A DNA stretch of 64,000 nt, taken from contig OX597823.1 of assembly GCA_951406725.2 (NCBI GenBank), forward strand, positions 64,604,001 through 64,668,000, read 5' to 3'. Both the position numbers and the translations under genes were made by a program. Position 1 is the stretch's first letter. Every line of letters starts with the position of its first letter. A model generated the notes under the pieces. It did not search any database. It was given only the letters and a program-made list of their open reading frames with translations, and was not told where the DNA came from. The DNA comes from Octopus vulgaris. Lineage: Eukaryota. Of this stretch, positions 14,987 through 57,022 are shown piece by piece.

Positions 14987-15549
14987 AAAATCGAAGTCGA
15001 TCAACATCAATGGAAATTGTAGCTGTGATACCAGTGCCGGTGGCACGTAAGCGAATCATCCAATCGCGGCCGTTGCCAGCGTCGCCCCGACTAGCCTCCG
15101 TGCCGGTGGCACGTAAAAAGCACCATCTGATCGTGGCTGTTTCCAGCCTCGCCTGGCTCCCGTGCCGGTGGCACGTAAAAAGCATCATCCGTCCGTGGCC
15201 GTTTGCCAGCCCCGTCTGGCACCTGTGCCAGTGGCACGTAAAAAGCACCCACTACACTCATGGAGTGGTTGGCGTTAGGAAGGGCATCCAGCCATAGAAA
15301 CATTGCCAGATCAGACTGGGCCTGGTGCAGCCTTCTGGCTTCCCAGACCCCAGTTGAACCGTCCAACCCATGCCAGCATGGAAAGCGGACGCTAAATGAT
15401 GATGATGATATATATAAGGGCATCCAGCTGTAGAAACACTGCCAGATTTGACTGGGCCTGATGAAGCCTTCTGGCTTCACAGACCCCAGTAGAACCGTCC
15501 AACCCATGCTAGCATGGAAAACAGACGCTAAACGATGATGATGATGATG
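14987..15549 (+). mobile_element. two tandem RTE-type 3' ends with (GAT)n tails
   Basis: gtgccggtggcacgtaaaa repeats, then ggcgttaggaagggcatccag...catggaaagcggacgctaaa(gat)n. A second short copy lies at 15417-15549. Confidence 0.75.
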
Positions 15550-15611: not shown

Positions 15612-15905
15612 TTCCCTAAAACTTGAGAACTACACAACCAATTCCATTCAAATTTTACACATACCTTACTTAGGGTGCGGGGAGTGTCATCGTCAAAAAC
15701 AATTTTTAACTTTTTGCCTAGGGCGAGCCCACAGCAATATCATATCTTCTCCACTACGATTCCCTAAAACTTGAGAACTACACAACCAATTCCATTCAAA
15801 TTTTACACATGCCTTACTTAGGGTCCATGTAGTTTCATGGGCAAAAAAAAATGTTCAACTTCTTGCCTAGAGCGAACCCATAGCAATATCATATCTTCTC
15901 CACTA
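15612..15905 (+). repeat. about 148-bp tandem duplication inside the Helitron 5' arm
   Basis: ttccctaaaacttgagaactacacaacc...atcttctccacta occurs twice. Confidence 0.9.
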
Positions 15906-16190
15906 TTTCAGTGTTATGTATTAAAAGTGAAACAAAAACATTTCTCTATTTTATGTCAGATACTTTCACTTTAAAATAATAATAATAACAATTCAATTAT
16001 ATGTAGTAAGTAATAATTAAAATCAAACTAAAGTGTAATATAATCGTAACATAACAAAAGTAAAAATAGCAATTGGTATAAAATTGCATCAATGACTTGA
16101 ACTTGAATAAGTGGTTTCACATGAATGAGAATAAATTAAAAATAAAATTAGCATGCAGAAATGGAATAGTCCAGATGAATAATAAAAAAT

Positions 16191-16244
16191 TATATTAAAG
16201 AAAAGACTATTGTCTATAAAGTATACAATGTAGAGAAAAAAGGT
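16191..16244 (+). pseudogene. decayed Tx1-type ORF1 fragment, left part
   Basis: Reads YIKEKTIVYKVYNVEKKG, comparable to YDKRTIVYRVCANERKR in the unit-1 ORF1. Confidence 0.6.
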
Positions 16245-16260
16245 CGTTTTTTTCGGCTCC

Positions 16261-17996
16261 GTGTTTTTTTTTCGGCTCCTGAAAATTCGGTAAAAAAGAA
16301 CAAAAAAGGTTGTTGTTGTTGTGGAAATTCTGAACGGCGTTGACGCGGTTTCGCGTTTCGCTCGTTCAGCGCGTTACACTTTTTCTGTTTTGGCGGCCGT
16401 TTTCGGTCTGTCAGACAGAAGGAAATGGACTATGAGTCTTTAACAGACTTGTCCACGACGGATGAGGAACTGGAACAGGCAATTGCAGTGAAGCTGATGG
16501 AGGAAAAGGCTGGAGTTTTTGAGTCTTTATCAGACTTGCCTATGTCTGAGAAGGAGCTAGAAATGGCAGCAAGGAAATTGGAAGACAAGCTGAGTTATAC
16601 CTATGCCGGTGTAACCAAGAAGGCGGAAGAGAAAGGGGTCGACATGGTCAAGTTGCCAAGTTACCAGAAATACATGAAAAAGGAAAGCGGTGAGGTGGAA
16701 CTATCACCGACACCCAGGAGAAAAGAATGGTATGATAAGAGGACCATTGTTTACAGGGTGTGCGCAAACGAAAGGAAGAGGGTAGAAGTTGTATCCATGG
16801 AATGGATAGAGGAAGCCCTGCGAAGAACTGAGGAGGAAATAAATTTTCTGACTCGAGGATCCAAGTACGGGACCGTAGTTGTGCATTTTAAAAGTGAATC
16901 GGCAGCGAGGAAGATGGCAGCGAAGGCGGTGAAGTCGGAAAAGGTAACACTGTTACCTACGTATTTAAACAGGAGGATTACACGAATAAGGGTGGAGGGA
17001 GTGCCACCAAACGTGGAGGCAGAATGGATTGTGGCGGCTGTGATCAGCGGCCACGAGGACGAAGTGGATATTCTCCATGCCTCGGTTAAGTCCGAGGGCT
17101 GGAGAGGCGTAACAGTGGAGCTGAACGTACAGGCAGAGACCGAGGTACTGGTGGACCTGACGGAAAGCATCAGACTGGGAGAAGTGATCATGAGAGTGTG
17201 GGTGGAGGGCAGGGCTCCACGTTGTTACAAGTGTGGCCTGAGGGGTCACATAAGAGCCTTCTGCCCTCCCCCAGGGAAAGAAATGGATCCTGAACCAGAG
17301 AGAGAGAAGCAGAAACCAGAGGAGAAGGAAACAGAGGAAGAGAATACACAGAAATGGAAGGAAGCTGGAAGTAAGAGGAAGAGAAGAATATGTGGAAAAA
17401 AAGAAAATAATATGGAACTCCAATCTACCCCAAAACCTCCCACACCCTCTGAGTCCCACCCTATCCATGCAGACATTGAACCCACCCGCTCCCCCCCAAC
17501 AAGAAAACAAAAGAAAAAAAAGAATACACACACACAAGAGATTGAAATCGAACCCAGGCCGTACATTTGTACTATGACTGAACAGAGGGAAGTTAAAAGT
17601 CTAATGGAAGAGTATAAACGGTATGATGTTGGAGAGACTAGGTATGCTGTGATTGAAAAAAAGAACATAGGTGAGTTTATGGGGAGGTGTGAAAGGGAGA
17701 ATTGGGAGGTGAAAGATATAAGAATGAGCGATGAATTCGTGGAAAATATGAATGAGTATTTCGGAGTAAGAATGGATATGGAATTTATTCGTATTGGCAA
17801 AGAACATTCAAGTGACTATGAAAAACAAAGGACAGGTAAGTGATGCTGACGGACGGGGCCGTTGGTATCGCTTTCATTTTATCATTTTTTTCGTTTAACA
17901 CTTCATGTTCATATAGTTTAATTATAATGTTCTATGTCCCCATGTTTTGTTATGTCCGCCATTCTTCGTAGCCCCTTAGTGGGTAATAAAGAAATA
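16261..17996 (+). mobile_element. ORF1-only (HAL1-like) Tx1-clade element, unit 1
   Basis: CpG-rich 5' UTR, single ORF1, U-rich 3' UTR, tail gccccttagtgggtaataaagaaata. Flanked by cg(t)7-8cggctcc duplication (16245-16260 / 17997-18013). Confidence 0.85.
16425..17843 (+). CDS. Tx1/L1-type ORF1 gag-like protein (RRM-like region + CCHC knuckle), intact, 472 aa
   Basis: CYKCGLRGHIRAFC (CX2CX4HX4C) preceded by VEGR; colinear with the ORF1 upstream of the RT in unit 4. Confidence 0.85.
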   Translation: MDYESLTDLSTTDEELEQAIAVKLMEEKAGVFESLSDLPMSEKELEMAARKLEDKLSYTYAGVTKKAEEKGVDMVKLPSYQKYMKKESGEVELSPTPRRKEWYDKRTIVYRVCANERKRVEVVSMEWIEEALRRTEEEINFLTRGSKYGTVVVHFKSESAARKMAAKAVKSEKVTLLPTYLNRRITRIRVEGVPPNVEAEWIVAAVISGHEDEVDILHASVKSEGWRGVTVELNVQAETEVLVDLTESIRLGEVIMRVWVEGRAPRCYKCGLRGHIRAFCPPPGKEMDPEPEREKQKPEEKETEEENTQKWKEAGSKRKRRICGKKENNMELQSTPKPPTPSESHPIHADIEPTRSPPTRKQKKKKNTHTQEIEIEPRPYICTMTEQREVKSLMEEYKRYDVGETRYAVIEKKNIGEFMGRCERENWEVKDIRMSDEFVENMNEYFGVRMDMEFIRIGKEHSSDYEKQRTGK

Positions 17997-19727
17997 CGTT
18001 TTTTTTCGGCTCCTGAAATTCGGTAAAAAAGAACAAAAAGCGTTGTTGTTGTTGTGGAAATTCTGAACGGCGTTGACGCGGTTTCGCGTTTCGCTCGTTC
18101 AGCGCGTTACACTTTTTCTGTTTTGGCGGCCGTTTTCGGTCTGTCAGACAGAAGGAGATGGACTATGAGTCTCTAACAGACTTGTCCACGACAGATGAGG
18201 AACTGGAACAGGCAATTGCAATGAAGCTGATGGAAGAAAAGGCTGGAATTTTCGAGTCTTTATCAGACCTGCCTACGTCTGAGAAAGAGCTAGAAATGGC
18301 AGCAAGGAATTTGGAAGAGAAGCTGGGTTATACCTATGCCGGTGTAACCAAGAAGGCGGAAGAGAAAGGGGTAGACATGGCCAAGTTGCCAAGTTACCAG
18401 AAATACATGAAAAAGGAAAGCGGTGAGGTGGAACTATCACCGACACCCAGGAGAAAAGAATGGTATGATAAGAGGACCATTATTTACAGGGTGTTCGCAA
18501 ACGAAAGGAAGAGGGTAGAAGTTGTAACCATGGAATGGATAGAGGAAGCCCTGCGAAGAACTGAGGAGGAAATAAATTTTCTGACTCGAGGATCCAAGTA
18601 CGGTACCGTAGTTGTGCATTTCAAAACTGAGTCTGCAGCGAGGAAGATGGCGGCGAAGGCGGTGAAGTCAGAAAAGGTAACCCTATTACCTACGTATTTA
18701 AACAGGAGGATTACACGAATAAGGGTGGAGGGAGTGCCACCAAACGTGGAGGCAGAATGGATTGTGGCGGCTGTGATCAGCGGCCACGAGGACGAAGTGG
18801 ATATTCTCCATGCCTCGGTTAAGTCCGAGGGCTGGAGAGGCGTAACAGTGGAGCTGAACGTACAGGCAGAGACCGAGGTACTGGTGGACCTGACGGAAAG
18901 CATCAGACTGGGAGACGTGATCATGAGAGTGTGGGTGGAGGGCAGGGCTCCACGTTGTTACAAGTGTGGCCTGAGGGGTCACATAAGAGCCTTCTGCCCT
19001 CCCCCAGGGAAAGAAATGGATTCCGAACCAGAGAGAGAGAAGCAGAAACCAGAGGAGAAGGAAACAGAGGAAGAGAATACACAGAAATGGAAGGAAGCTG
19101 GAAGTAAGAGGAAGAGAAGAATATGTGGAAAAAAAGAAAATAATATGGAACTCCAATCTACCCCAAAACCACCCACACCCTCTGAGTCCCACCCTATCCA
19201 TGCAGACATTGAACCCACCCGCTCCCCCCAACAAGAAAACAAAAGAAAAAAAAGAATACACACACACAAGAGATTGAAATCGAACCCAGGCCGTACATTT
19301 GTACTATGACTGAACAGAAAGAAGTTAAAAGTCTAATGGAAGAGTATAAATGGTATGATGTTGGAGAGACTAGGTATGCTGTGATTGAAAAGAAGAACAT
19401 AGGTGAGTTTATGGGGAGGTGTGAAAGGGAGAATTGGGAGGTGAAAGATATAAGAATGAGCGATGAATTCGTGGAAAATATGGATGAGTATTTCGGAGTA
19501 AGAATGGATATGGAATTTATTCGTATTGACAAAGAACATTCAAGTGACTATGAAAAACAAAGGACAGGTAAGTGATGCTGACGGACGGGGCCGTTGGTAT
19601 CGCTTTCATTTTATCATTTTTTTCGTTTAACAATTCATTTTCATAAAGTTTAATTATAATGTTCTATGTCCCCATGTTTTGTTATGTCCGCCATTCTTCG
19701 TAGCCCCTTAGTGGGTAATAAAGAAAT
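17997..19727 (+). mobile_element. ORF1-only Tx1-clade element, unit 2 (close paralogue of unit 1)
   Basis: Colinear with unit 1 over the full length, with scattered substitutions and the same tail. Confidence 0.85.
18158..19575 (+). pseudogene. ORF1 with one frameshift in a C-run near 19225
   Basis: ORFs 18158..19309 and 19306..19575 together match unit-1 ORF1. The run is C6 here versus C7 in unit 1, so it could be a sequencing error. Confidence 0.85.
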
Positions 19728-19747
19728 CACATGGAGGAAATCAATTT

Positions 19748-21510
19748 GCGTGTTGTTATCTGTGACTAGACGTTGAAATTTTGTTGTGTAAAGTGATTAA
19801 TATCGCGCGAGGCGTTTGCCTCCACGTTTGGAAACCTTCCGAAGAAGGTGAATTGACCCTCTAGTCATGGCGACTTACGCGGGGGTCACGGGAAAGAAAA
19901 ATAATGATTCGGCAATAATCGTGAAGGATGTTTTCTTTGAGAAGAGTAAACTCAAAGAATATGAAAAACTATTCAAAAGGGAGGGTGATAGCGTGAAGCT
20001 AATCCCCCCCGCGAAAGCAAAAGAGGACAAAGAAAACAAGACTGTAACGTATAGAACCCAGGAAAAAGTACAAAGAAACTGGCAAGAGTGGAGATAGCAG
20101 AGATCGAAAAATGTCTGGGAGACATAATGGATAAATCGACCTACGTGAGTAGAGGAAAAAATTTGGTACGGTGGAGGTGAGATGTGCAACGGAAGAAATT
20201 GCAGCCTCACTGGCTACCACTGTTCTAAGAGCGGAAACATTTATAATGTGGCCCTCATACAAGGGAAGAAGAGGGGTCCGGGTTAAAATCCCGAATATAC
20301 CCCCAGAAGTAAAAACAGAATGGCTGGCAACAGCTATTCTAGGAGCAGCAGAAGAGGAAGTGGAGGTGGAATCCTTTAAGGAGTCCAACGCAGTAAACTG
20401 GAGAGGATATGGGGTAGAACTGTGTTTGATGGCCACAAAAGAGGACATTGAAAGGTTCCCCTATAGAATAGAAATTGAAGACGAGAAAACCCTCAGTGTA
20501 ATTGTAGAGGGAAGAAAGCCAAACTGCTACTTGTGCGGGACAAGGGGGCACATTAAAAAAGAGTGCCCGTTATACGAATTCGTAGCGGAGTATGAGAAGG
20601 AAATTGAAGAAAAGAAGAATACGGTAAATGAAAAAGAAAACATAGAAAAGGAGACAAAACAACAAGAGAAAGGAAATAATAAGTCAACGAAGGAAAAAGA
20701 AATAAAAGAAAAGAAAGAAATAGAACCAAAACAGAGTCAGGAAAAGAAAAAGGAAAAAGAAACAACAGGAAAAAAACAAGAGAGAGATCAGAACCAAACG
20801 AAAAGAAAAGACGGCACACAAAAAGAAAAAGAAAAGGAACATAAAACACGAGAGAAAGAGAGAACAGACAAAGAACCAAAAAGACAAGAGAAGGAAGGAG
20901 AAAGAAAAGAAGGCAAAAAGAGAGAAAGAGAGAAACAAAGAGAGGAGAACAAGGAAGAAATAAGCCCGAAAAGAAAAACGAGAGAAAACGTAGGACGGAA
21001 ACAAGATTACTACAAGTTAATAACCTTCCATTTCAGCCCTGAAATGAAGGAATTGACATGTAGTACGGAGGGACATGTGTGGGTCAACAGGATGACTGAT
21101 CAGTGGCAGGAGACTGCTCTGATCCCCGAAGAAAGAGTCGCTGAGTTCCTCAGAGCAGCTGGAGAGAGTGTAATTTTTTACACGGGTGTTCGAATGAAAG
21201 AGCGGCTGCCTGAGGGCTCAGTGATTGACTTTAGAGACTTGAAAGGTATTATGGAATACGTGTGAGATTGTGAGAGGAGAGAGAAGAAAGAAGAGAAAAA
21301 AGAAAAAAAAAAAATTGTGAACTATATGTGACGAAAATGTAACCTCTCGATTCCGGGGATCGAGTGGGCATTTGCATCTCATTGTAAATATTCTTTCATT
21401 TGTCATTTTTATTTTTATTTTTTCCTTTTCTTGTCATTTCGCTTTCTTATTTTAAGTTCCCCGATTGTATTGTCCCCTCTATGTTCGCCCCTTGTGGGTA
21501 GTAATAAAAT
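19748..21510 (+). mobile_element. divergent ORF1-only Tx1-clade element, unit 3
   Basis: Flanked by the 20-bp duplication cacatggaggaaatcaattt (19728-19747 / 21511-21530); tail gccccttgtgggtagtaataaaat. Confidence 0.85.
19867..21265 (+). pseudogene. ORF1 (frameshifted near 20070-20160) with CCHC knuckle and K/E-rich linker
   Basis: MATYAGV start (compare YTYAGV in unit 1), GTVEV, IPPEVKTEWL, VEGRKPNCYLCGTRGHIKKEC. Confidence 0.8.
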
Positions 21511-21739
21511 CACATGGAGGAAATCAATTTATTGCGTTATTAGTAAGTTGATATATATTTTTGCTCTCATACTACTTATCTCTGTTATTATATACTGTTG
21601 GTCTACCTTTTTTGTCCATTGTTGTCTAACGGACGAAGTCAACCTTCGCGCGAAGACTTCGCGTTGGTGTTCCCCCTCAGTGGGGGAAAACTACAATCAA
21701 TTTAGATTACCAAAGGCTTGTTAAAGCCATTTGTTCAAG

Positions 21740-23122
21740 ATGGAGTCCCCCATCACTTATTCGCCCGTGACGAGCGAGGATGAATACCCGGCGTTGTCGC
21801 CAAGTAAAAAAGAGGCGTTGTCGCCAAGAAAAAAAGAGGCGCTGTCGCCGAAGAAAAAAGAGGCGGCGTCGCCCAAGAAAATGGAAAAACCAGTACCAGC
21901 ATCAACTCCAGCAAAAAAATTCGCTGAAGTGGCTGGGAAGAAAATTAAAAAAAAATTAACGTGGACAACCTGGGAAAACATGCAGACTGTGTGTAAAAAA
22001 GAGGGCACAGAAGTAACCTGTGGCTTCAAACGCCCAAAAATACAGGAGGATATTTCGAATAGGAGAATAATCTATAAGACATTCAGTATAACAAACAGAG
22101 CAATCCAAAAAATAGAGGAGAAAAAGATTGAAAACTGCTTAAAGCCAATAATGGATAAAATTACGTATATCAATCGAGGAAAAAGAAATACGGCACAGTG
22201 GAGGTGAGATTCACGTCAGAGGAGGTAGCGAAGAAGCTATCCATGGAACCCATCAAAGCGGAGGATATTGTTCTCCTACCCCTGTATAAAGGCAAGAGAA
22301 CTTCCAAAATCACTATGAACAACATCCCGCCAGAGCGGATGCCGAAGTCCTAGTGGCAGCAGTTATGGTAGGCCTGGAGGAAAAAATAAACATCCTCCAG
22401 GCCACCGTGGAGAAGAAGAATTCTGGAAAGGGCAAAAAGATAATAATAGCCATACAAGCAGAAGTACAAACCCTGGAAGAGATCCCAGAGACTCTAAGGA
22501 TAAGTGAAGAAGATGAAAGAGTCACAGTCTTCGTAGAGGGCAGAAAGCCGAGGTGCTTCGGCTGCGGTAAGAAGGGGCATGTAAGGGCGGAATGCCAGCC
22601 CCAACCCAAACCGCAGGAAGCACCTAAGCCAAAAGGAAAAAGAAGACAATGTGTCACCAGAAGCAGCGTCAGACGGCCCAGAAGGGAAGACTGAAGGTGT
22701 GGAGGTGATGGTAACAGCAGAACCAGCGGCGGAGGAAAAAAAGAGCGAGGAAAAGATAAATGAGGAGGGGTGGGCAAAAATTATCGGAAAAAAAAAAAGA
22801 AAAACGGAAACCACCCCTCCCAGAGTAATTTTAAAAAAGAAAAAAGAGTCAATGAACTCATATATGGCCGTAAAGCATCAAATAGCAGACTCGGAAACGT
22901 GTTGGCAGCCATGGCCAATGTGAGAGAGTAGAGAAAAAAAATGACTTTGTAATTTACAAAATAGACCGGAAGGATTACGGGCGGATAAAGTCAGAATTCT
23001 TCCATGACGTAGGCCCACTTAGGTTGGATGTAACATCTCCACATATATTCGAGGGCCTACGTCAGACTCCCCCACGAGGCCCAGAAAAAGAGAAGGAAGA
23101 AGAAGAAAAACCGAACCACTGA
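21740..23122 (+). pseudogene. LINE ORF1 with several frameshifts, N-terminal SPKK repeats and CCHC knuckle
   Basis: Pieces 21731..22207, 22353..22694 and 22651..22923; VEGRKPRCFGCGKKGHVRAEC. End coordinate approximate. Confidence 0.8.
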
Positions 23123-23136
23123 TATAAAGGTAAGTA

Positions 23137-26100
23137 ATGGATTACATTTATGTTGGTTGTTTAAATGTGCGCGGCCTGGGAGCAGGCTGGAAGCAAGGTC
23201 GCTTCCTGCATGATATCAGGTCGCGTAATTTAGATGTTATTGTTGCTACAGAAACCCGGCTAGAGGGGCCAAGAGGTCTACTCCCGCTGTTTGACGGCTA
23301 CGAGAGTTTTTTCTCTCCTGGCAGTCCTACAGGCGGGAGTGGGGTGTTGGTCCTATTAAAAAGAAACCGGGTTTCTGAGAAAAAGTTAATTTTTGCAGAT
23401 CCAGAAGGTAGGCTGGTCGTCATGGATTTGACGTTCAGTAATGGTAAAGTTATCAGACTGGTTGCAATTTACGCACCCAACCATACAGGGCAAAGTGATT
23501 ATTTTCGTGAACTAGAAAACTTTCTTGGTACTTCGCATTCATTAGTGGTGCTAGGAGACTTTAACACAATTTGCAAAGCGGATGTGGATTGTGTTGGCTC
23601 GTGTCCAGATAGAAAAGGCAACAGTGGCTTCATGGAACTGCTAAGCCGCTTTGAGCTAGCAGATCCTTATAGGCTGGAATTTCCGAACGCTCCATTGTGG
23701 ACATGGTCAAACAGCGACGGATCTTCCAGGTCGTATTCTAGATAGAATACTAATTAGAAAAGTAGACAGTAAAATAGCTAAGTGTCCACAGTTTTACCCG
23801 ATCAGCTACAGTGATCATAAAATGGTCACTTGTAAGCTTGACATAGATAAGGTTAAAAATAGAGGATCCGGTTACTGGAAACTTAATACGTCCCTTTTGG
23901 CGATTAAGGAGTACAAAGACCGGATTAGGAATATAATTCAGAGGGCACTATCTGGTACCATCATTAATAACAAATGGTGGTACGCCCTCAAACGAGCCAT
24001 CAAGTTTGAGTCTATTAGATATAGCATAGGAGTAGTGGCTAGAGAGGCTAGAAGGGAAACTACTCTAGTTAAGGAATTAGAGGAAGCCATGAAAACTGGC
24101 TCTGCGGCTCAGGTGGCGGCCAAGAGACTGGTGTTAAACCAGCACCTCGAGGCCAAACACATGGGCTGCATTGTCAGGGCTAGAATCCGTCATATGGGAT
24201 GTGAAGGAATCAACGCCGTGAGATGGGCCCGAGTGGTGGAAGCTCAGCATGGTAACGATGCCACGATTCGATCTTTGACGAACCAACAAGGTGAGTTGAT
24301 AAACGAACCCGAGGAGATGTGTGAGGCCTTTCAGGAGCACTTCGCTCAGCTTTTCGGTGAGTGCGGCGGACTGGATAGGAGGAGGGCCTTTACGGACCTA
24401 CTCGACGGTCTGCCGCGCTTATCGGGGCGAGATGCGGAGGGCTGTGAAGGGCCAATCACGCCTGAGGAGGTGGTTGAGGCAATGGCGGACTGCGGCGCGG
24501 GCAAGGCGCCGGGTTTGGATGGTCTACCCTATGAGTTATATAAGAGTATGCCAGACTTGTTCGGGCACCTACTGGCGGAGGTCTACGCGAACTGGCAGCA
24601 GAACGGGCTTATACCCAGATCTGTGCGCCGGGGAGTAGTGACTCTCGTCAGAAAGGACCCGAGCAAGGGGGAGTGCATTGATAATTTCAGGCCCATCACT
24701 CTGCTAAACACAGAGTTGAAGATTTTGGCCAAAGTGTTATCGAAAAGATTGGCGTGTGTCGCGGATGGTCTGATCGGAGGGGCACAGACATGTGCCGTTC
24801 CGGGCAGATCCATTCAGGATAATCTCCATCTAATGCGGTACACTATAGAGGGGTTTAATAGTGATTCTGGCAAGGGTGGGGCACTGGTCCATTTAGACCA
24901 ATCTAAAGCTTTTGATAGGGTCGACCATCGTTACCTGGTATCTGCCCTGGCACAGTTCGGGCTGAGCCTTGGATTCCTCAGGTGGATTATCGAAATTTAT
25001 GATAACATCGACTCGGTAGTTCGGGTGAACGGCTTCTTGTCGAAGCCGTTCAAAATCAAACGCTCGGTTCGTCAAGGGTGTCCGCTCTCCCCGCTTTTGT
25101 ACGTGATGGCTCTTGAGCCATTACTGCGAAAACTGAGCGGCATCCCGAGACAGCCAGGTAATGGAAAATCAGTGTCAGCGTACGCGGATGACATCACCAT
25201 CATCGTAACCGAAATGGACCACCTATGTAAAGTAGGCAAGGCCATAGAGGTGTACGAGACGGTGACAGGAGCAAAAGTTAATCGCGAAAAGTCAGTCGGC
25301 TTGCAACTCGGCACCTGGAGAGGCAAGTCGATGCCTCCTGACAGCGTCGTGGGACGTTGGACGGAGGGTCCGATTAAACTGCTAGGGGTCTGGTTCGGTC
25401 CAGACCTCCAAATAGAGAAGAATTGGGGCGAGGTAACGAGCAAGGTGGCTGCAGTAGCCAAGACCTGGTCTTGGCGGTGGCTATCCCTGAAAGGGAGGGC
25501 GGAGGTGGCCAATGTGTTTATCGCATCGGTTATCACCTACCGCCTTTCCGTCGTTCCTTGCCCTGATTCGTGGTTGATCAAGTTGGAAAGACAGCTCTTC
25601 TACTTCTTGTGGAAGGGCGGGAAACCACTGTGAAACGCTCTACTTGCTGTCAACAACCGTTAAAGGGTGGGCTAGGGATGCCTTGGCTGATGATGCGCAG
25701 ACATGCGCTGAGGTTAAGACATCTGTGGCTCTACCTGGATGGTGAACGGGTGTGGTCTTCGCTAGCAAAACTGATGTTTCCCAAGTTCACTAGTTTCGGT
25801 GGATGGGAAACCTGGCTGAGTCGTAGATCGAAACTTGGTACTTGGTACACGGAGTGTCGCAAGGGCTCTCCTGCTATTCCGTCGCTCGGGCAACGCCTGC
25901 GGTGGGGGTTCCACCACTTTCTTCTATAGAGGGTTGGTAGAGGCGGAATGTGAAGATACCTTGGGGGAAACCCTAGGTCTCGACGATAATCAGCTGGCCA
26001 GTCTGTTCCGACGTACGTTCGAGCCAAGGACACTGGACAACTTCCAGAAGTCTCTGGCATGGCAATGCTACAGAGGAGCTCTACCTGTTCGGGATAAACT

Positions 26101-26532
26101 CGCAAGGCACGGTGGCCAAGACAGTCCGATATGTCCAAGATGCGGGCGGGATAGGGAAACCGTCCCGCACGCGATTGTTCATTGTCCGGACGTGTCTGAG
26201 GTGTGGGTTTATGCCGAACACCTGTTGTCAGGTACACGAAGAGTACAGCTGTCGACTGAGTCGATTACAAAAATTGACCCACCGGATTTCCTCGTGAATG
26301 AAGGTAAGTTTCGTTTTCTCGTTGTAGTAGCAATGCGAAAGAGGTGATATGGAAGACGAGAATGAAAGGTTTACAGTCAGGCAAGTTCATCTCCGGCCCT
26401 GGTTTGATGAATTATTTCATCTTTCACCTGAAAAGGAAGATAGGGCTGGAGAGAATATGCCTGACTAGGAGAGCGTATGAAGAACGATGGAAGGATGTAG
26501 CACGGAAGTTGCGAATGAAAGTTACAACATAA
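23137..26532 (+). pseudogene. LINE ORF2: AP endonuclease + reverse transcriptase + C-terminal CCHC finger (about 4 frameshifts)
   Basis: APE motifs LNVRG, ATET, IYAPN, LGDFN, SDH; GYWKLN; RT motifs KAPGLDG, FRPITLLN, LDQSKAFDRV, SVRQGCPLSP, YADD; CPRCG..ETVPHAIVHC. Confidence 0.95.
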
Positions 26533-26780
26533 ATGTAATACCAAGTGCAACCAAAAGTATCAGTGGGGAGGCGGGGCTCGTGGGGTCCGAGCTAAACCCG
26601 CACCCACTCCACCCGTAATGTCTTCCGGTCTGTCCTATCATTCGATTTCTGTCCATTTATTGTTATTCATGAAAATTTTTAAACCCGATTTATTGTAAAA
26701 ACCCATTCGTTTGTCTGACCCCATCATCAGAATGTATTGTCCCATCTGTGTTCGCCCCTTGTGGGTAATAATAAAACAAC

Positions 26781-27062
26781 ATGGAGGAAAGCACCTTCGA
26801 AAAGTGTCTTGGTGCGACAATGAAAGATATCTAATCAGAGGCGGTAAATTCACTACAATAGAAGTCAACGGAGCGTGCAAGGGAGTACTCGACTCAAACC
26901 TGCAAAGTGGAAATATTTTATTTTTACCTTTATATCTGGGACGTAGGACGTCCCGGAAAAAAATTTAAAATGCTCCCCACCCAGAAGTAGAGGTAGGCTG
27001 GATTGTAGCCACACTTCTATACAAGAGGGAGGACAAGATACAATTGATCGAAATTACAAGAG
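26781..27062 (+). pseudogene. decayed Tx1-type ORF1 fragment, right part
   Basis: MEESTFEKCL.../YLIRGGKFTTIEV...ILFLPLYLGRRTSRKKI*NAPHPEVEVGWIVATLL aligns by eye with FLTRGSKYGTVVV...TLLPTYLNRRITRIRVEGVPPNVEAEWIVAAVI. Confidence 0.8.
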
Positions 27063-27267
27063 ACGGGCTAACAATTCCAAGTCTGTTATATATTTTGAGT
27101 ATTGTTATCACTAGCGATATCAAGATATAACTTTGTATTTTGTATTTTATGTGTAGATGTATATATATAGATGTACATGTACATGTACACATATATATAC
27201 ACATATATATACACATATATACATGCACTAGCACTATGACCCGGCAACGACGGGTCTTTAATGCTAG

Positions 27268-28453: not shown

Positions 28454-29055
28454 TGTGTACACCTATACACATATACAAGCACATACATAGATACACACAC
28501 TCACACACACACATATATATACATATACGTACTCATATACAAATGAACTAATACATACAAAGAATAAAATGAAAATACATACCTATTTAAATATACATAC
28601 ACTTATACAGAAATGGATACATATATATGCATATATACACACATATCAGAATATATGCATATATATATATGCACATATATACATATAGATATTCATACAC
28701 ATGCACAAATGCATACATACACATATATATATATATATATATCTCAATAAAGCAAATGTGTTTGCAAGCTCGAATGTAAGCATATAGCTAATCCATAACG
28801 GCAAAAAAGTAAACACTTGTATTAGATTAAATCTGCCAGAGAGATTATGAAAGCAATTTTACTGACATGTGTACAGTAATAATTAATAATTAATAATAAT
28901 AAAAATAAAAATAAAATAAATCTAAGGTAGAGGTAATCAGGAGCAAAAAGAAGTTTTCAGGTGCAGGATTAGAGAACCAAAGTAGTCATTAGATGGCAAC
29001 AACTTCAATAATTTGTAAAAGATAGTTAAGCTGTAAAATATGAGTGCAATGGACT

Positions 29056-29452
29056 GTGAGCTGGCAGAAACGTTAGCATGCTGGGCGAAATGCTTAGCGG
29101 TATTTCGGCTGCTGTTACGTTGTGAGTTCAAATTCCACCGAGGTTGACTTTGTCTTTCATCCTTTCGGGGTCGATAAATTAAGTACCAGTTACGCACTGG
29201 GGTCGATGTAATCGACTTAATACCTATGTCTGTGGTTGTTTGTCCCCTCTATGTTTAGCCCCTTGTGGGTAATAAAGAAATATAAATAGGTATTAAATCT
29301 GTCTTTGTGTTCCGAGTTCAAATTCTGCCAAGGTTGACTTTGCCTTTCATCCTTTCGGTGTCGATAAACTAAGTACCAGTTGCATACTGAGGTCGATCTA
29401 ATCGACTGACCCTTCCTCAAAAATTTCAGGCCTTGTGCCTAGAGTAGAAAAA
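29056..29452 (+). mobile_element. SINE family B dimer; first unit has a Tx1-type tail
   Basis: gagctggcagaaacgttagc...gagttcaaattcc head. Unit 1 ends tgtcccctctatgtttagccccttgtgggtaataaagaaata (29282). Unit 2 restarts at ggtatt (29289) and has a different tail. Confidence 0.85.
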
Positions 29453-33370: not shown

Positions 33371-34553
33371 TCACTCAACTACAGTACTAGTTGAATAATA
33401 CTCTTAAGGCCGCAAAAAACTCACATACTGCATCTTTCGGGCTTGTTGCTAATTTAATTCATAACCAAATTGAAAACTGTTAACATTTTTGTAGAGGACT
33501 GGTCCCTAGCTACATTTTGGCATTAAAAAATTGAGATTTGATCCTGTAGAAAAAGTTTATATCAAAATTTATAGCAACATTATAGGAGAGTAAGTAATGC
33601 CACCAATCGAGTTTAGATCTAAATAACTTTTTTTTTTATAAAAGCAAAATATATTCATCTTAGCTTGAATGATAGAAGAAAGCATAAAGAATTTCACAGT
33701 TTTGTTCCCATGCAACAAAAATTTGTATCAAAAAGTTGTGAGGTAAAATATCACCAGAAAAATATAAGGCAAAAACTGGATTTAAGTATAATTAACTTTG
33801 TTATTTTAAAAACACACTATATTTTAATTAAATGATAGATTTAATTAAATGATAGAGCTCAATTCAAAGAATTTCATGGTATCAATCTCATGCAATGAAG
33901 TTTAAAAACAAAAAAGTTATGAGCGTTTGTTTCTGAAATTTGAGGGTGATAATATAGTGCTATACTTTTTCATGAATACAGTTCTATAAGGGTGCTTTTA
34001 ATATATGTTACCGGTGTCATTGAGGTTAGGAAAAATTATCAATGACACCGTGAATTGAAACATTTGACACATTATTTATTAGCATAATAGCATAGCCTGG
34101 AAAAAACATGGATTACATGGGAAAATGCAAGCAAGAGAAATAACATTCTTAAGATTATAAACTTGGAAAATTACAGGACATCTTATTACACTTAGAAAAG
34201 TTCAGGACATCTTATTACATCTGGTAAAGTACAGAACAAAAATATTTTTACTTAGAATATTGCAGCTAAGGATAAAATTTGAATATTAAAAATTATTTGA
34301 TTTTAATTTACAAGGTAACTTTATAATTAACAAAATACCCTCACAAGAGTACTTAATAAATGAGAGCCAGAAGTATCAATATAGCTAAAGTTTTATGCAA
34401 TGTAGAATAGTATATATGGTAGGCAGATTCATTATGTAAAAAATAGGCATTGGGTCAAGACTAAAAATGTGAAGACTTGGCAATAACTTAGGCAATAACT
34501 CAAGCAAATTTTACTGTGAATTTGTTGTTATAGGTAGATTTTACTGCAATATA

Positions 34554-36191
34554 CACTGGCGAAAATAAATTTAAGACTGAGATGATAAAAGTTCTATTTC
34601 TCACAAAATACTTTGTTACTAACACCATAAAAATTATTTTTATCTGTTACACCTCATGCAGAATTTATTTCTCTTTCGAATGATGCAGATAATAACTATT
34701 TTTATACTACTTGTAGAATTCTAATGCTAAATTAATATAAACGTTTCAAATTTACTGGCAAAATTAGTTTAAGACCGTATCATTATAATTTTATTTAAAG
34801 CTTAAGATTGTAGCAAAAATGAGCAACAAGAACGAAATAGATATTAGTACTTTGTGCTGTAGCCCTTATTTTTAATAATGGCTGAACAATGCCTCGGTAT
34901 TGAATTCACTAAGTGATTACAAAATTCTATGGGAATGTTTTGCCATATCTCATTGATATAGTCGAATAATTGTTTTAGATTAGATGGTTTTTTAGCATGG
35001 ACTTTTTTGGAAACATAAATCCACAAGTTCTCAATCAGATTCAGGTCTGGGCTCTGGGGAGGCCATTCGATTATGCCAATTTTATGGTGATCAAAAAATC
35101 CCATAACCTTTTTGGCTTTGTGCACAGGAATATTGTCCTGGTGATAAATAGCCCCTTGAGGCATTTGGTGAGTCAAATATGGCACAACATTATCCATTAA
35201 TAGATTCATATAACCTACACTATTTAGCTTTCCATCAACTTTAACTAGAGGGCCAACACCAAAGCTACTAAATGCTGCTCACACCATCACACCCCTAACA
35301 CCCACTTGCGCCATCGTTTTCAAGCATTTCAGATGGAATTCCTCGGTTGGGCGACGTCTGATGTATGTTTTACCATCTGATCCAAATATACAGAAGCGTG
35401 ACTCGTCATTCCAAAGGACCCTGCAACAATCTTCGGCAGTCCATTGAGCATGGCTTTTTATGAAATTAAGGTGTTTGAGTCGACTTTTTTGGATATTATT
35501 GACGTTTTCCTAACAATTCGTCATTGCAGTCTAAATTCTCTCAAATGGTTGTGGACAGTTTGTGGTGTAAAAATAAAACCATTCTCATTGGACAATTGTT
35601 TACAAATGTCAACGGCTGTCAGCATTCGGTTGCCTTCAGAAAGTCAGTGGATTCAATGGTCCAACTGCACCGTCGCTTTTCTTGGGGGTCCAGTCCTTTA
35701 CCAATCTTTATATTGACCAGTCTCCAAGTATAACTTCCATGCTTGCACACAAGCCATTTTACTTCACTTTAGTTACTTGCTGATGTTCAAAAAGGAAACT
35801 TTTTGCTGGTGGAGTAATATGATTTTTACTCTCGTGACTGTACTGAGGCTACGTTGTTTTCCTATTATTAATCAATTGTATAATAACGTTAAATTATAAC
35901 ACTATATAGTGCAGTTAGGCTAGTTGTGTGACCACCCATTTTGGCAAAAAAATTTGCATATATATTACATAGTCTTAAACTAATTTTGCCAGTAAATTTG
36001 AAACATTTCTATTAATTTAGCATTAGAATTCTTCAAGTAGTATAAAAATAGTTATTGTCTGCATCATTCGAAAGAGAAATAAATTCTGCATAAAGTGTAA
36101 AAGATAAAAATAATTTGTATGGTGTTAGTAACAAAATATTTTGTAAGAAATAGAACTTTTATCATCGGTCTTAAATTTATTTTCGCCAGTG
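34554..36191 (-). mobile_element. Tc1-family DNA transposon with IR/DR ends
   Basis: TA|cactggcgaaaataaatttaagac ... gtcttaaatttattttcgccagtg|TA; about 220-bp TIRs, each with an inner direct repeat actggcaaaattagtttaagac. Confidence 0.95.
34844..35757 (-). pseudogene. Tc1 DD34E transposase, disrupted
   Basis: WNDESRF, QDNIPVH and SPDLNLIENLW, with 34 residues between the second D and E. 5' boundary approximate. Confidence 0.9.
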
Positions 36192-36640
36192 TATAACTAA
36201 TTTTTGTATTATTCTATTTATTGTACTAACTAATTATGTTCTACTATAATTTTTTATAACCTATTTTCAAATTTCTAATTATTAATTAATAATTAAAAAA
36301 ATGAATGTTTTTAAAGTGCAAAAATTATTTTGATTGAGTTATCTTTCATTTTTAATAGAAGTAACAAGTAATAACAAATAGAAATAATAACTTGTAATAA
36401 AAATTTTCGTTTTAATAAAAGCTAATATTTTCTAAGCCTAAATATTTTATTTGAAATTTTATCCTTAGCTGCAATATTTTAAGTAAATATTTTCTTGTTC
36501 TGTACTTTACAAGATGTAATAAGTTGTCCTGAACTTTTCCAAGTGTAATAACTTGTCCTGTAATTTTCCAGATTTATAATCTTAAGAATATTATTTCTCT
36601 TGCTCGCATTTTTCCATGTAATATGTATATTCTTTTATTA

Positions 36641-37870: not shown

Positions 37871-39000
37871 TATGTTTGACTTTTGCTTTATATTTGTACA
37901 AGTTGGCTCCAAGTCTCACCCAGAGACCTCAAGAGACAACAGGGTTGGAAGTTCATGTTGTTGTTATGCCTAGTGTGCCATATATTTGGGGGGTGGGGAT
38001 GTTGTACTAATGAATGTCTAAAAATAAAAAAAAAAAAAAAAAAGGTTTTTTTTTTTTTGTTTTTTTTTTTAAACCGAAAATTATGTTTGTTTTAAACCTT
38101 GAGATTACATAGAGAGTATTTTGCGTAGGATATGAGCAGTTCCCATGAGCACTATCTTTTGAACTTCTGCCATTTTTGGGTTTCCTGGTATCTGAGTTAG
38201 GTAGCTATCAGCCCCTTTTGCTATCATTCCCAGGGCACCTATGACAACAGGTATTGTTTTAGTCTTCAGCTTCCACATTTTGCTGATTTCTATTTCAAGA
38301 TCTTTATATTTGCTCAGTTTTTGGTAGGTCTTGACAGATACGTTTATATCGATTGGGACAGTCATATCAATGAGGAGGCATGTTCTTTGTTTGAAGTTTT
38401 TCAATATGATGTCTGGCCTATTTGCATCTATCTTCCTGTCAGTTTGAATGGTGAAGTTCCAGAGGAGTGAGATGTGGTCATTTTCAAGCACTGGGGGTGG
38501 TTTGTGTTCCCACCAGTTTTTTTCATGGGGCAAATCCAGGTTTTTACAGATTACCCAGTGAATATATTGTGCAGCTCTATCGTGCCTGTTGAGATACTCT
38601 GTAGGCGCTAGAAGACTGCACTTGGAGACCACATGGTCAATGGTTTCATTTTGTTGCTTGCATACACGACACGTTGGACTGCTTCTGATCTTTAATATGT
38701 TGGCCTGGTAGTTTCTTGTTGGTAGGCATTGATCTTGAGCTGCTATGATAAACCCCTCTGTTTCAGATTTTAAGCCAGAGGCCATTAGCCATTGATGGGT
38801 CAGGGCTTTGTCGATATCTGCATTATTCGCTCTCTTTGGGTATTTGCCATAGAGAGGTTTTTCTTGCCATTTATTATTCAGAATATCTAAGGCCGCAGTT
38901 TTGGCACGGGTTTTCATGCGCCTAGCTTTTTCTGTGCTTGTTTCATGCGCCTAGCTTTTTCTGAGCTTGTTTTATGCGCCTAGCTTTTTCTGTGCTTGTT
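37869..39000 (-). mobile_element. 5'-truncated R4/Dong-like RLE non-LTR retrotransposon in (TAA)n
   Basis: ORF C-terminus and 3' UTR, flanked on both sides by (TAA)n. Confidence 0.85.
38105..38917 (-). CDS. C-terminal CCHC finger + restriction-like endonuclease domain (partial ORF)
   Basis: CRVC..ETIDHVVSKC, RHD, RPDII..LLID, K..KY.DL, IPVVIGALG: the R2-group RLE signature. Confidence 0.9.
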   Translation of the reverse strand: MKTRAKTAALDILNNKWQEKPLYGKYPKRANNADIDKALTHQWLMASGLKSETEGFIIAAQDQCLPTRNYQANILKIRSSPTCRVCKQQNETIDHVVSKCSLLAPTEYLNRHDRAAQYIHWVICKNLDLPHEKNWWEHKPPPVLENDHISLLWNFTIQTDRKIDANRPDIILKNFKQRTCLLIDMTVPIDINVSVKTYQKLSKYKDLEIEISKMWKLKTKTIPVVIGALGMIAKGADSYLTQIPGNPKMAEVQKIVLMGTAHILRKILSM

Positions 39001-49425: not shown

Positions 49426-49680
49426 CAGTAGTAGTAGCAGTAGTAGTAGCAGCAGTAGTAGTAGTAAGGTGGCAAGGTGGCAGAATCATTAGCACACCGG
49501 GTGAAATGCTTAGTGGTATTTTGTCTGTCTTTACACTCTGAATTCAAATTCCTCCGAGGTCGACTTTGCCTTTCATCCTTTCGAGGTGAGTAAAATAAGT
49601 ACCAGTTGAGCACTGGGGTTGATGTAATCGACTATACACCTTCTACCCATATACCAGGCCTTGTGCCTATAGTAGAAAGG

Positions 49681-56169: not shown

Positions 56170-57022
56170 ATGTTTTGCTTGTTTCAGTCATTGGACTGGG
56201 GCCATGCTAGAGTACCAACATGAAGGGGTTAGGGAAACAAGTTACCCGCCAGTACTTATTTTGTTTAAGCTTGGTACTCAGTCTATTGTTTCTTTTGTTG
56301 AACTGCTAGGCTATAGGAATGGAAACAAACCAACACTGGTTGTCAAGTGGTGATGCTGGACCAGACACCACTTGACAGTGAACTGGCAGAAACATTAGCA
56401 CGCCGGGCAAAATGCTTAGTGGTATTTCATCTGCTGTTACATTCTGAGTTCAAATTCCACCAAGGTTGACTTTCCCTTTCATCACTTCGGGGTCGATAAA
56501 TTAAGTACCAGTTACACACTGGGATCAATGTAATCGACTTAATCCGTTTGTCTGTACTTGTATGTCCTCTCTGTGTTTAGCCCCTTGTGGGTAGCAAAGA
56601 AACAGGTATTTCATCTGCCGTTACGTTTTGAGTTCAGATTCCACCAAGGTAAACTTTCCATTTCATCACTTCGGGGTCGATAAATTAAGTACCAGTTACG
56701 CACTGGGGTTGATGTAATCGACTTAATTTCTTTGTCTGTCCTTGTTTGTCCCCTCTATGTTTAGCCCCCTGTGGGCAATAAAGAAATAGATGCTGGAACA
56801 GACACAATGACATAAAAGCACACACACACACACACACACACATACACACACACACACATATACACACATGCATACACATGACAGGCTTCCAGGCTTCTTT
56901 CAGTTTCCATCTACTAAATCTACTCACAAGGTTTTAGTAAAAAACTTGCCCTAGTGTCTACACAGTGGGACTGAACCTGGAACCATGTGGTTGGGAAGCA
57001 TGCTTCTTACCACACTGCCATA
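56170..57022 (-). mobile_element. older SINE family A interrupted by a SINE B dimer
   Basis: Tail at 56170-56368, head at 56880-57022. Confidence 0.7.
56369..56788 (+). mobile_element. SINE family B dimer, both units with Tx1-type tails, 17-bp TSD
   Basis: Tails ttagccccttgtgggtagcaaagaaac and ttagccccctgtgggcaataaagaaata. TSD gatgctgga(c/a)cagacac at 56352-56368 / 56789-56805. Confidence 0.85.

Follow-up and report, generated by a model that had tools for sequence, protein, structure and literature searches.

Two putative families of ORF1-only LINEs in an interstitial array of the Octopus vulgaris genome

Introduction

Short elements that end like a long interspersed nuclear element (LINE) may be debris of a complete copy or families that spread in their own right, and the question is raised by a locus of Octopus vulgaris at which three short units stand upstream of a full-length LINE. 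The locus lies in a 64,000-nucleotide stretch of contig OX597823.1 (assembly GCA_951406725.2, positions 64,604,001 to 64,668,000), here called the window. At 16.24–26.78 kb of the window four units follow each other head to tail, all on the + strand: three short ones (U1 to U3) and then the LINE (U4). An initial annotation, made from the letters of the window, had described the short units as two distinct HAL1-like families which carry open reading frame 1 (ORF1) and lack ORF2. We consider it probable that, taken as a whole, U1 and U2 (family A) and U3 (family B) represent two non-autonomous LINE families of an octopus L1/Tx1-type group, each multi-copy, ORF1-only and of separate derivation. 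Family A by itself is very probably a propagated ORF1-only element, and family B is likely to be one. Published papers are given by PubMed Central number.

Results

Layout of the array

Coordinates are collected in Table 1. U1, U2 and U3 measured 1.73–1.76 kb each, and the design originally described (units of about 1.75 kb with their own 5′ untranslated region (UTR), an ORF1 with a single CCHC knuckle, a short U-rich 3′ UTR and a LINE tail) was confirmed. U1 and U2 were 97.5% identical across 1731 nt. Their 3′ UTRs were 152 nt (41% T) and 151 nt (41% T) long, and that of U3 was 244 nt (37% T). CpG was enriched in the 5′ UTR of U3 as well (observed/expected 1.40; window 0.47), and the 5′ UTR of U1, judged by its composition, is a probable internal promoter. 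No significant similarity was found when the 5′ UTRs of U1, U3 and U4 were compared (best E 0.27). The array is interstitial, with ordinary DNA on either side.

Table 1. Features of the array and related tails in the window. TSD stands for target-site duplication, RT for reverse transcriptase, SINE for short interspersed nuclear element, obs/exp for observed/expected and AF2 for AlphaFold2.
Feature	Position	Strand	Description	Evidence
Left half of older decayed ORF1 relic	16185..16243	+	Insertion target; ends in GAGAAAAAAGG followed by TC	
U1 TSD, ~17 bp	left 16244..16260, right ~17995-18013	+	TC plus first bases of U2	
Unit 1 (U1)	16261..17995	+	ORF1-only, family A	
U1 5′ UTR	16261..16424	+	CpG-rich, obs/exp 1.93 vs 0.47 window-wide	
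U1 ORF1	16425..17843	+	Intact, 472 aa	ORF list, AF2, Foldseek, Pfam
ORF1/ORF2 stop-start junction kept in U1	17834..17845	+	AGGTAAGTGATG; also consensus splice donor	
U1 3′ UTR	17844..17995	+	U-rich; ends in shared tail with AATAAA, without poly(A) tract	
Unit 2 (U2)	~17997..19726	+	ORF1-only, family A, variant differing from U1	
U2 ORF1	18158-19575	+	One frameshift, ~19224-19230, in C run	
U3 TSD, exact 21 bp	left 19727..19747, right 21510-21530	+	TCACATGGAGGAAATCAATTT; 2 matches vs 0.05 expected	
Unit 3 (U3)	19748..21509	+	ORF1-only, family B	
U3 ORF1	19867-21265	+	Two frameshifts (~20064, ~20158), both in A runs	
U3 ORF1 C-terminal domain	20999..21262	+	Beta-alpha-beta-beta-alpha-beta (ferredoxin-like) plus short helix	AF2
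U4 TSD, 12-14 bp	21512 and 26779	+	ACATGGAGGAAA	
Unit 4 (U4)	21524..26776	+	Full-length L1/Tx1-type LINE, several frameshifts, presumably oldest insertion	
U4 ORFs	ORF1 from 21740; ORF2 23137-~26532	+	ORF2 with APE endonuclease, RT, zinc finger	
U4 ORF1/ORF2 overlapping stop-start	23128..23139	+	AGGTAAGTAATG (UAAUG)	
Right half of ORF1 relic	26777..27064	+	In-frame stop and frameshift; 31-35% identical to units 1-4	
SINE copy with the array's tail	29047..29281	+		
Two further SINE tails	56580-56602 and 56764-56786			

ORF1 was unbroken in U1 only, with one break in U2, two in U3 and several in U4. Many frameshifts of U2 to U4 fell in short homopolymer runs, and some of them may be base-level assembly errors. 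In the aligned frames, U4 (21740–26532) showed few in-frame stops, most of its lesions being changes of frame; this element may be young and affected by base-calling errors rather than decayed. The gradation from an intact U1 to a U4 with many breaks was considered as evidence of age and dropped, as several breaks lie in short homopolymer runs.

Absence of ORF2 from the short units

U4 encodes the enzymatic part of an L1/Tx1-type LINE. Pfam detected an APE endonuclease (E 2.5e-10) and an RT (E 5e-31) in its ORF2, in addition to a C-terminal zinc finger, and the best PDB matches were human L1 ORF2 chains (RT E 2e-46, endonuclease E 2e-8). The features found that characterize the Tx1 type were an L1-group APE endonuclease with RT and zinc finger and a type I ORF1 protein (ORF1p) with RNA recognition motifs (RRMs) and a CCHC knuckle. 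The best 120 ORF2 matches included no named reference for Tx1, and U4 was placed by its domains and ORF1 type.

U1 to U3 were searched for ORF2 remnants by tblastn with 123 ORF2 queries, and none was found: all 236 high-scoring segment pairs at E<1e-3 lay on U4, and the best matches on the short units had E 0.19 (U1), 0.25 (U2) and 0.068 (U3). The claim that the short units hold no trace of ORF2 thus stands for coding remnants and fails for U1 and U2, which keep the stop-start junction. The pattern AGGTAAGTRATG had three matches in the window against 0.01 expected (17834, 19566 and 23128); they mark the stops of U1 and U2 and the place where ORF2 of U4 begins. The window search placed no match in U3. 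Coupling through an overlapping UAAUG is known from SART1 (PMC3894237). As the junction is kept in family A and the sequence past the retained ATG bears no resemblance to an endonuclease start, the arrangement suggests that ORF2 was lost directly behind its own start codon.

U1, U2 and U4 carry a consensus splice donor (AG/GTAAGT) where ORF1 ends, and gene models use it. The short units could on this basis go back to RNAs of autonomous parents that were reverse-transcribed after splicing had taken out ORF2 as an intron, which would also account for the identical structure of U1 and U2 and for an inherited signal of selection. Breakpoints would in that case be repeated exactly even if no ORF1-only lineage existed. 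We regard this origin as very improbable: a donor that is retained in U1 and U2 was therefore not used, what follows their ATG is unlike the start of an endonuclease, and U3 is without the motif.

Divergence of the ORF1 proteins and selection

The initial annotation had called the ORF1 proteins strongly diverged from each other and from U4, which agrees with core identities of 33–36% (U1–U3 33%, U1–U4 35%, U3–U4 35%; 31–36% with the relic included). The ORF1 phylogeny proposed there as a check was built. In a quick tree of 70 rows, U1/2, U3, U4 and the relic fell into separate groups, with a long stem branch (0.92) for family A. Approximately unbiased (AU) tests rejected a clade of A and B (p=0.0004) and a clade of B and U4 (p=0.0004), and did not reject A with U4 (p=0.054). 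Families A and B are therefore unlikely to be sister ORF1 lineages, as far as the aligned sequences tell. The view that the short units are not recent deletions of U4 was upheld by the identities and, for U3, by the rejected clade; for U1/2 the corresponding test stands at p=0.054.

Between U1 and U2, ORF1 showed 36 substitutions, of which 19 were synonymous and 17 non-synonymous, and a single indel. The ratio of non-synonymous to synonymous differences per site (pN/pS) was 0.23–0.37 (kappa 1–8; p 2e-5 to 2e-3) for this one pair, which represents family A only. Apparent purifying selection on family A ORF1 is shown by the pair, with the signal concentrated in the 5′ third of the frame, where the differences cluster; the suggestion that ORF1 is possibly under selection is borne out to this extent.

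Copies elsewhere in the genome

Copies elsewhere were seen as predicted proteins, 165 of which were obtained from ORF1 searches (P-numbers); these are spliced models whose intron lengths are not given. The family A C-terminus occurred in 21 of the 165, in 19 of the 21 at ≥82% identity, and the family B C-terminus in 7. Named protein matches, at up to 99–100% identity, were all from O. vulgaris (5/5 and 12/12). Family B comprised 26 member sequences in four clusters (93–99%) on at least three chromosome-scale contigs, with an identical stop position.

Four C-terminal residues separate U1 from U2, and at these positions the two haplotypes were met again among the other gene models (U1 type: P0001, P0003 and P0006; U2 type: P0006, P0011, P0013 and P0014), and P0006 holds both variants in the order opposite to the array. 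Their recurrence elsewhere indicates that U1 and U2 stem from different source elements and did not arise by local duplication. The two variants have one common structure from ORF1 to tail. P0001 and P0002 each have three family A C-termini spliced in, P0069 (another locus) runs from a family A ORF1 end through the tail into the next head, and in P0004, P0048 and P0159 a family A end is joined to a family B-like ORF1. The gene models thus point to arrays at other loci. The boundaries without ORF2 were the same in both family A variants and in P0069; for family B they were seen as protein ends only.

The absence of ORF2 from gene models was tried as evidence and rejected. This control is without power, because only one of the 165 proteins has any ORF2 and none of the best 120 ORF2 matches was named O. 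vulgaris.

Families A and/or B might instead be recent or one-off internal deletions of extant autonomous LINEs with near-identical ORF1, the signal of selection being inherited from them. O. vulgaris has 80 L1-Tx1 consensus families, 13 of them recently active (PMC13282606), and such an origin would be compatible with the powerless control, with the clustering of the U1/U2 differences in the 5′ third of ORF1 and with the single copy of U3 seen here. It is nevertheless judged unlikely. Two family A variants with one ORF1-to-tail structure indicate a loss that was propagated and not one-off, P0069 shows the ORF1 end, the tail and the next head at another place, and the stem branch of family A is long.

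Distant relatives with matching C-terminal segments were found at 54–60% identity for family A and 33–60% for family B (P0008, P0042; P0048, P0162–P0165), so that each family includes older subfamilies. Together with its splice donor, the C-terminal segment of family A served as an exon in P0001–P0015, P0048, P0069, P0101, P0117, P0128 and P0159, and it forms the last exon of P0003, a host-like protein of 652 aa. Annotation contamination or exonisation are both possible.

Proposed insertion history

The left flank of the array matched positions 45–63 of the ORF1 family hidden Markov model (HMM) at 16185–16241 (independent E-value (iE) 0.2), and the right flank positions 66–117 at 26775–26912 (iE 0.11) and 85–167 at 26825–27064 (iE 1.7e-14). 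Though weak alone, the left match is collinear with the right one (HMM 63 to 66), and by their sequences the two flanks appear to be the halves of one decayed ORF1.

TSDs were identified at the junctions. A T run followed by CGGCTCC occurred in the window at 16247, 16264 and 17999 only. The 5′ junction of U2 has just TC (2 bp) in common with the target. The 21-bp TSD of U3 is composed of the relic target and the first bases of U4. Window-wide, the 12-mer ACATGGAGGAAA was found three times, at the junctions U2/U3, U3/U4 and U4/relic; the U4/relic copy belongs to the coding sequence of the relic. Because the TSDs are nested, the simplest reading would be that a single nick 3′ of GAGAAAAAAGG received four insertions one after another, first U4, then U3, U2 and U1, and U1 would be the youngest insertion of the array. 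U1 and U3 each have their own TSD and so would have arrived as units. The shared nick concerns the four insertions at this single locus. Tandem copies which sandwich a TSD through sequential insertion have been described for the Tx1-driven SINEU-3 (PMC4494074).

A reading of TCACATGGAGGAAATCAATT as a 5′ head common to U3 and U4 was rejected, as its first 12–14 nt match relic coding sequence of the right flank; a self-targeting head resembling its target is a possible alternative reading. An Rfam scan of the window gave 0 matches at gathering thresholds and ARAGORN 0 genes, so the junction sequences correspond to no recognised RNA-gene target. Just upstream of the relic, tandem units of ~60 bp around GTGCCGGTGGCACGTAAAAAGCA and a duplicated segment of ~140 bp (15030–15260 and 15617–15905) were noted by eye.

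The array could also have arisen by tandem duplication, as a single composite element with several ORF1s, or as an assembly artefact. Family A upstream of B in three other gene models (P0004, P0048 and P0159) would suit such an origin, and the frameshifts in short homopolymer runs would suit base-level assembly error. There is little chance that any of these applies, given that sequence from the flanking relic is present at the internal junctions, that U1 and U2 match different genomic variants, with the reverse order in P0006, and that a pN/pS below 1 misfits neutral decay after local duplication.

Shared 3′ tail

A tail pattern, for which 0 matches were expected, was found seven times in the window: U1 to U4 and three SINE copies end in it. 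The units stop 3–5 nt past AATAAA in this conserved tail and have no A tract. The last 47 nt of U3 were 91.5% identical to U4 (E 1e-13). The tail of U1 and U2 is more distant from U4 (blastn 19 nt at E 0.39; the pattern fits with three mismatches), and its ending resembles the SINE tail (AATAAAGAAAT). As the U1/U2 tail is SINE-like and that of U3 closest to U4, families A and B may use different partners.

The SINE body was abundant and carried alternative tails (29047–29281, 56374–56602 and 56605–56787; others at 49475, 58602, 59172 and more). Three of 11 blastn matches ended in the LINE tail of the array, and several others had another tail with (ATT)n behind it, which suggests that SINE tails were swapped between LINE partners.

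Domains and predicted structure of ORF1p

U1 ORF1p consists of acidic N-terminal helices, two RRMs (aa ~70–262), a CCHC knuckle (266–281), a charged linker and a C-terminal domain (~377–472). In the AF2 model (67 sequences), aa 71–280 were confident (mean predicted local distance difference test (pLDDT) 92–98), and Foldseek matched the model to tandem-RRM proteins (49 matches at E≤0.001, best 1.7e-5). A single CX2CX4HX4C knuckle is present in each ORF1 (Pfam zf-CCHC E 0.067 in U1, 0.00014 in U3, 0.011 in U4), and no Pfam match of the L1 Transposase_22 type was present in U1 or U3 at E≤1. L1 ORF1p is of type II, with a coiled coil, an RRM and a C-terminal domain. U1 ORF1p is, on its model, of type I (RRM-RRM-CCHC), consistent with Tx1 and not with the L1 type; type I ORF1 has been described in Tx1 elements (PMC5203782). 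An internal duplication of 49 nt (75.5%; 16433–16481 and 16520–16568) gives the N-terminus of family A ORF1 a pair of acidic helical repeats.

The C-terminal segment after the charged linker, thought at first to be distinctive, is real in U1 to U3 and not special to them, since a similar segment is found in U4 and in several homologues. The structure prediction called for in the initial annotation gave a ferredoxin-like fold for U3 and none of confidence for U1. The C-terminal 93 aa of U3 were modelled with a pLDDT of 86.2 and a predicted template modelling score of 0.77 (9 sequences), and the C-terminal domain of U1 with a pLDDT of 32–66. The best structural match of the U3 domain was an ACT domain (VIA Z 7.0, rmsd 4.1, 70 aligned); the top matches comprised ACT, procarboxypeptidase and EF-G domains (Z 5.5–7.0), and Foldseek gave no match at E≤0.001. 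The predicted fold is a common one, and matches within the range usual for this arrangement imply no function. No usable feature match for either C-terminal domain was found in the ESM Atlas, which is not proof of novelty. In hhalign comparisons among the C-terminal domains, probabilities for those of U1 and U3 stayed below 3% (reversed controls below 1%), and only the pairing of the P0019/P0025 group with the U4 group came to 48% (E 2e-4). A C-terminal 'GK' as a family-wide mark was unsupported (1/14 long homologues).

Other features of the window

A Tc1/mariner-like DNA transposon was located at 34112–36622, with a DDE_3 ORF on the − strand (34844–35209) and nested inverted repeats (34581–34775/35972–36166, 95%; 34112–34283/36451–36622, 91%). 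At 38105–38917 (− strand) lies the 270-aa 3′ part of a non-LTR ORF (zf-RVT E 7e-6) which adjoins (ATT)n tracts and is of a LINE clade other than that of U4.

Discussion

The findings can be joined into one model. Each family would be transcribed by RNA polymerase II (Pol II) from its own CpG-rich 5′ UTR, and its own RRM-RRM-CCHC ORF1p would package the RNA in cis, a need for which is suggested by a pN/pS below 1. Endonuclease and RT would be borrowed from an autonomous relative such as U4, whose ORF2p would recognise the shared ~45-nt 3′ tail and not a poly(A) tract. The endonuclease would have nicked the top strand repeatedly at the same place, just 3′ of GAGAAAAAAGG, followed by target-primed reverse transcription, and a variable second nick would have produced TSDs of ~12–14, 21, 2 and 17 bp, which include the start of the previous element. 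Within the old ORF1 relic the array would thereby have grown leftwards by U4, U3, U2 and U1. In family A the loss of ORF2 would have begun right behind the overlapping stop-start codon, which this family retains.

Several observations weigh against this account. Of the 36 U1/U2 substitutions, 26 lie within the first 530 nt of ORF1 (Kolmogorov-Smirnov p=4e-4); the remaining changes (4 synonymous, 6 non-synonymous) are uninformative on selection, and recombination with an autonomous sibling could be the source of the signal. The AU tests used 24 author-chosen rows of the 70 and 5000 replicates, below the program's advice. The other copies are known as proteins and not as DNA, so that near-identical ORF1 copies with ORF2 may exist; a complete family B ORF1 was not seen among the 165 proteins (the longest, P0155, begins at an internal Met), and with its single copy in the window U3 may owe its form to a deletion after insertion. 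The TSD of U2 is only TC, and the left relic half has an iE of 0.2. No common hairpin was found in six tails, whose predicted structures differed (z −3.05 to +0.14).

If the account holds, it adds a Tx1-type group and a mollusc to the ORF1-only LINEs, and two origins, independent of each other, would be seen at one locus. A recent Drosophila survey connects the recurrent loss of ORF2 with arrays at telomeres (PMC13534243). A non-telomeric array at one nick would be an independent case for asking whether array formation, and not telomere service, favours ORF1-only passengers. With a full LINE, ORF1-only elements and a SINE on a single tail, the locus also offers a natural series in which it can be asked why a Pol II passenger needs ORF1p and a SINE does not. 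For annotation, the family A C-terminal exon is a probable contaminant, being spliced into many O. vulgaris gene models.

A further-reaching and rather doubtful proposal is that the locus is an interstitial counterpart of HeT-A/TART, with at least two old, independent ORF1-only Tx1-type lineages which have no close autonomous parent left and persist by stacking at the target nick immediately upstream of autonomous elements at many loci. Adjacency to the partner, possibly with read-through transcription, would then give access to ORF2p, loss of ORF2 would follow site-specific array formation and not telomere function, and the entire ORF1 clade to which U3 belongs could represent an old radiation of ORF1-only elements.

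Searches of the open literature brought up no ORF1-only elements of Tx1 type or from cephalopods; Repbase, Dfam and subscription journals lay outside this search and may hold such families. Passages of PMC9115989, PMC4758252, PMC10294476 and PMC8967140 contain nothing on them. In a 2026 repeat annotation of O. vulgaris (PMC13282606), which lists 80 L1-Tx1 families, the terms HAL1, ORF1 and non-autonomous were absent from the main text and supplement in a term search, its repeat library being outside that search.

HAL1 is mobilised through a poly(A) tail. The octopus units resemble it as non-autonomous LINE derivatives which encode ORF1p without ORF2p, and the label HAL1-like is apt for this way of life with a presumably borrowed ORF2. 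It does not extend to membership, as the octopus ORF1p is RRM-RRM-CCHC, with a ferredoxin-like C-terminal domain predicted in U3, the elements reside in a cephalopod, their 3′ end consists of a conserved tail common to LINE and SINE without a poly(A) tract, and insertion at one site was repeated. HAL1 is derived from mammalian L1 (PMC5786205) and has arisen independently more than once with ORF1 coding capacity kept (PMC5753468, PMC3627910). ORF1-present non-autonomous LINEs are listed in PMC5786205 for HeT-A (Jockey), HAL1 (L1) and Ag-Sponge (CR1), and for these clades only. Marks of such elements seen here were a LINE's 5′ portion and 3′ tail without the ORF2 between them and an own TSD (U1 ~17 bp, U3 21 bp; U2 2 bp). 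Ag-Sponge of Anopheles is likewise an ORF1-present bipartite non-autonomous LINE (PMC5786205), and belongs to the CR1 clade.

Among the target-preferring elements Tx1L, Keno, Tx1-Mar and SINEU-3, targets include other transposons and non-autonomous passengers occur (PMC4494074). These share with the octopus array a type I ORF1, tandem copies that sandwich TSDs, and non-autonomous passengers. Their passengers are non-coding SINEs, whereas the octopus passengers encode ORF1p, and the octopus target lies within an old ORF1 relic. In the telomeric Jockey elements of Drosophila, ORF2 was lost repeatedly, and ~40% of 396 telomeric families are ORF1-only, with an average of ~8 kb (PMC13534243). HeT-A and its kin are alike in being ORF1-only elements in head-to-tail arrays of several families with ORF2-bearing partners. 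They differ in being Jockey elements of ~8 kb which are telomeric and added to chromosome ends, whereas the octopus units are of L1/Tx1 type, 1.7 kb long and interstitial, and have TSDs pointing to endonuclease-dependent insertion. The octopus units thus work like HAL1 and HeT-A and are members of neither.

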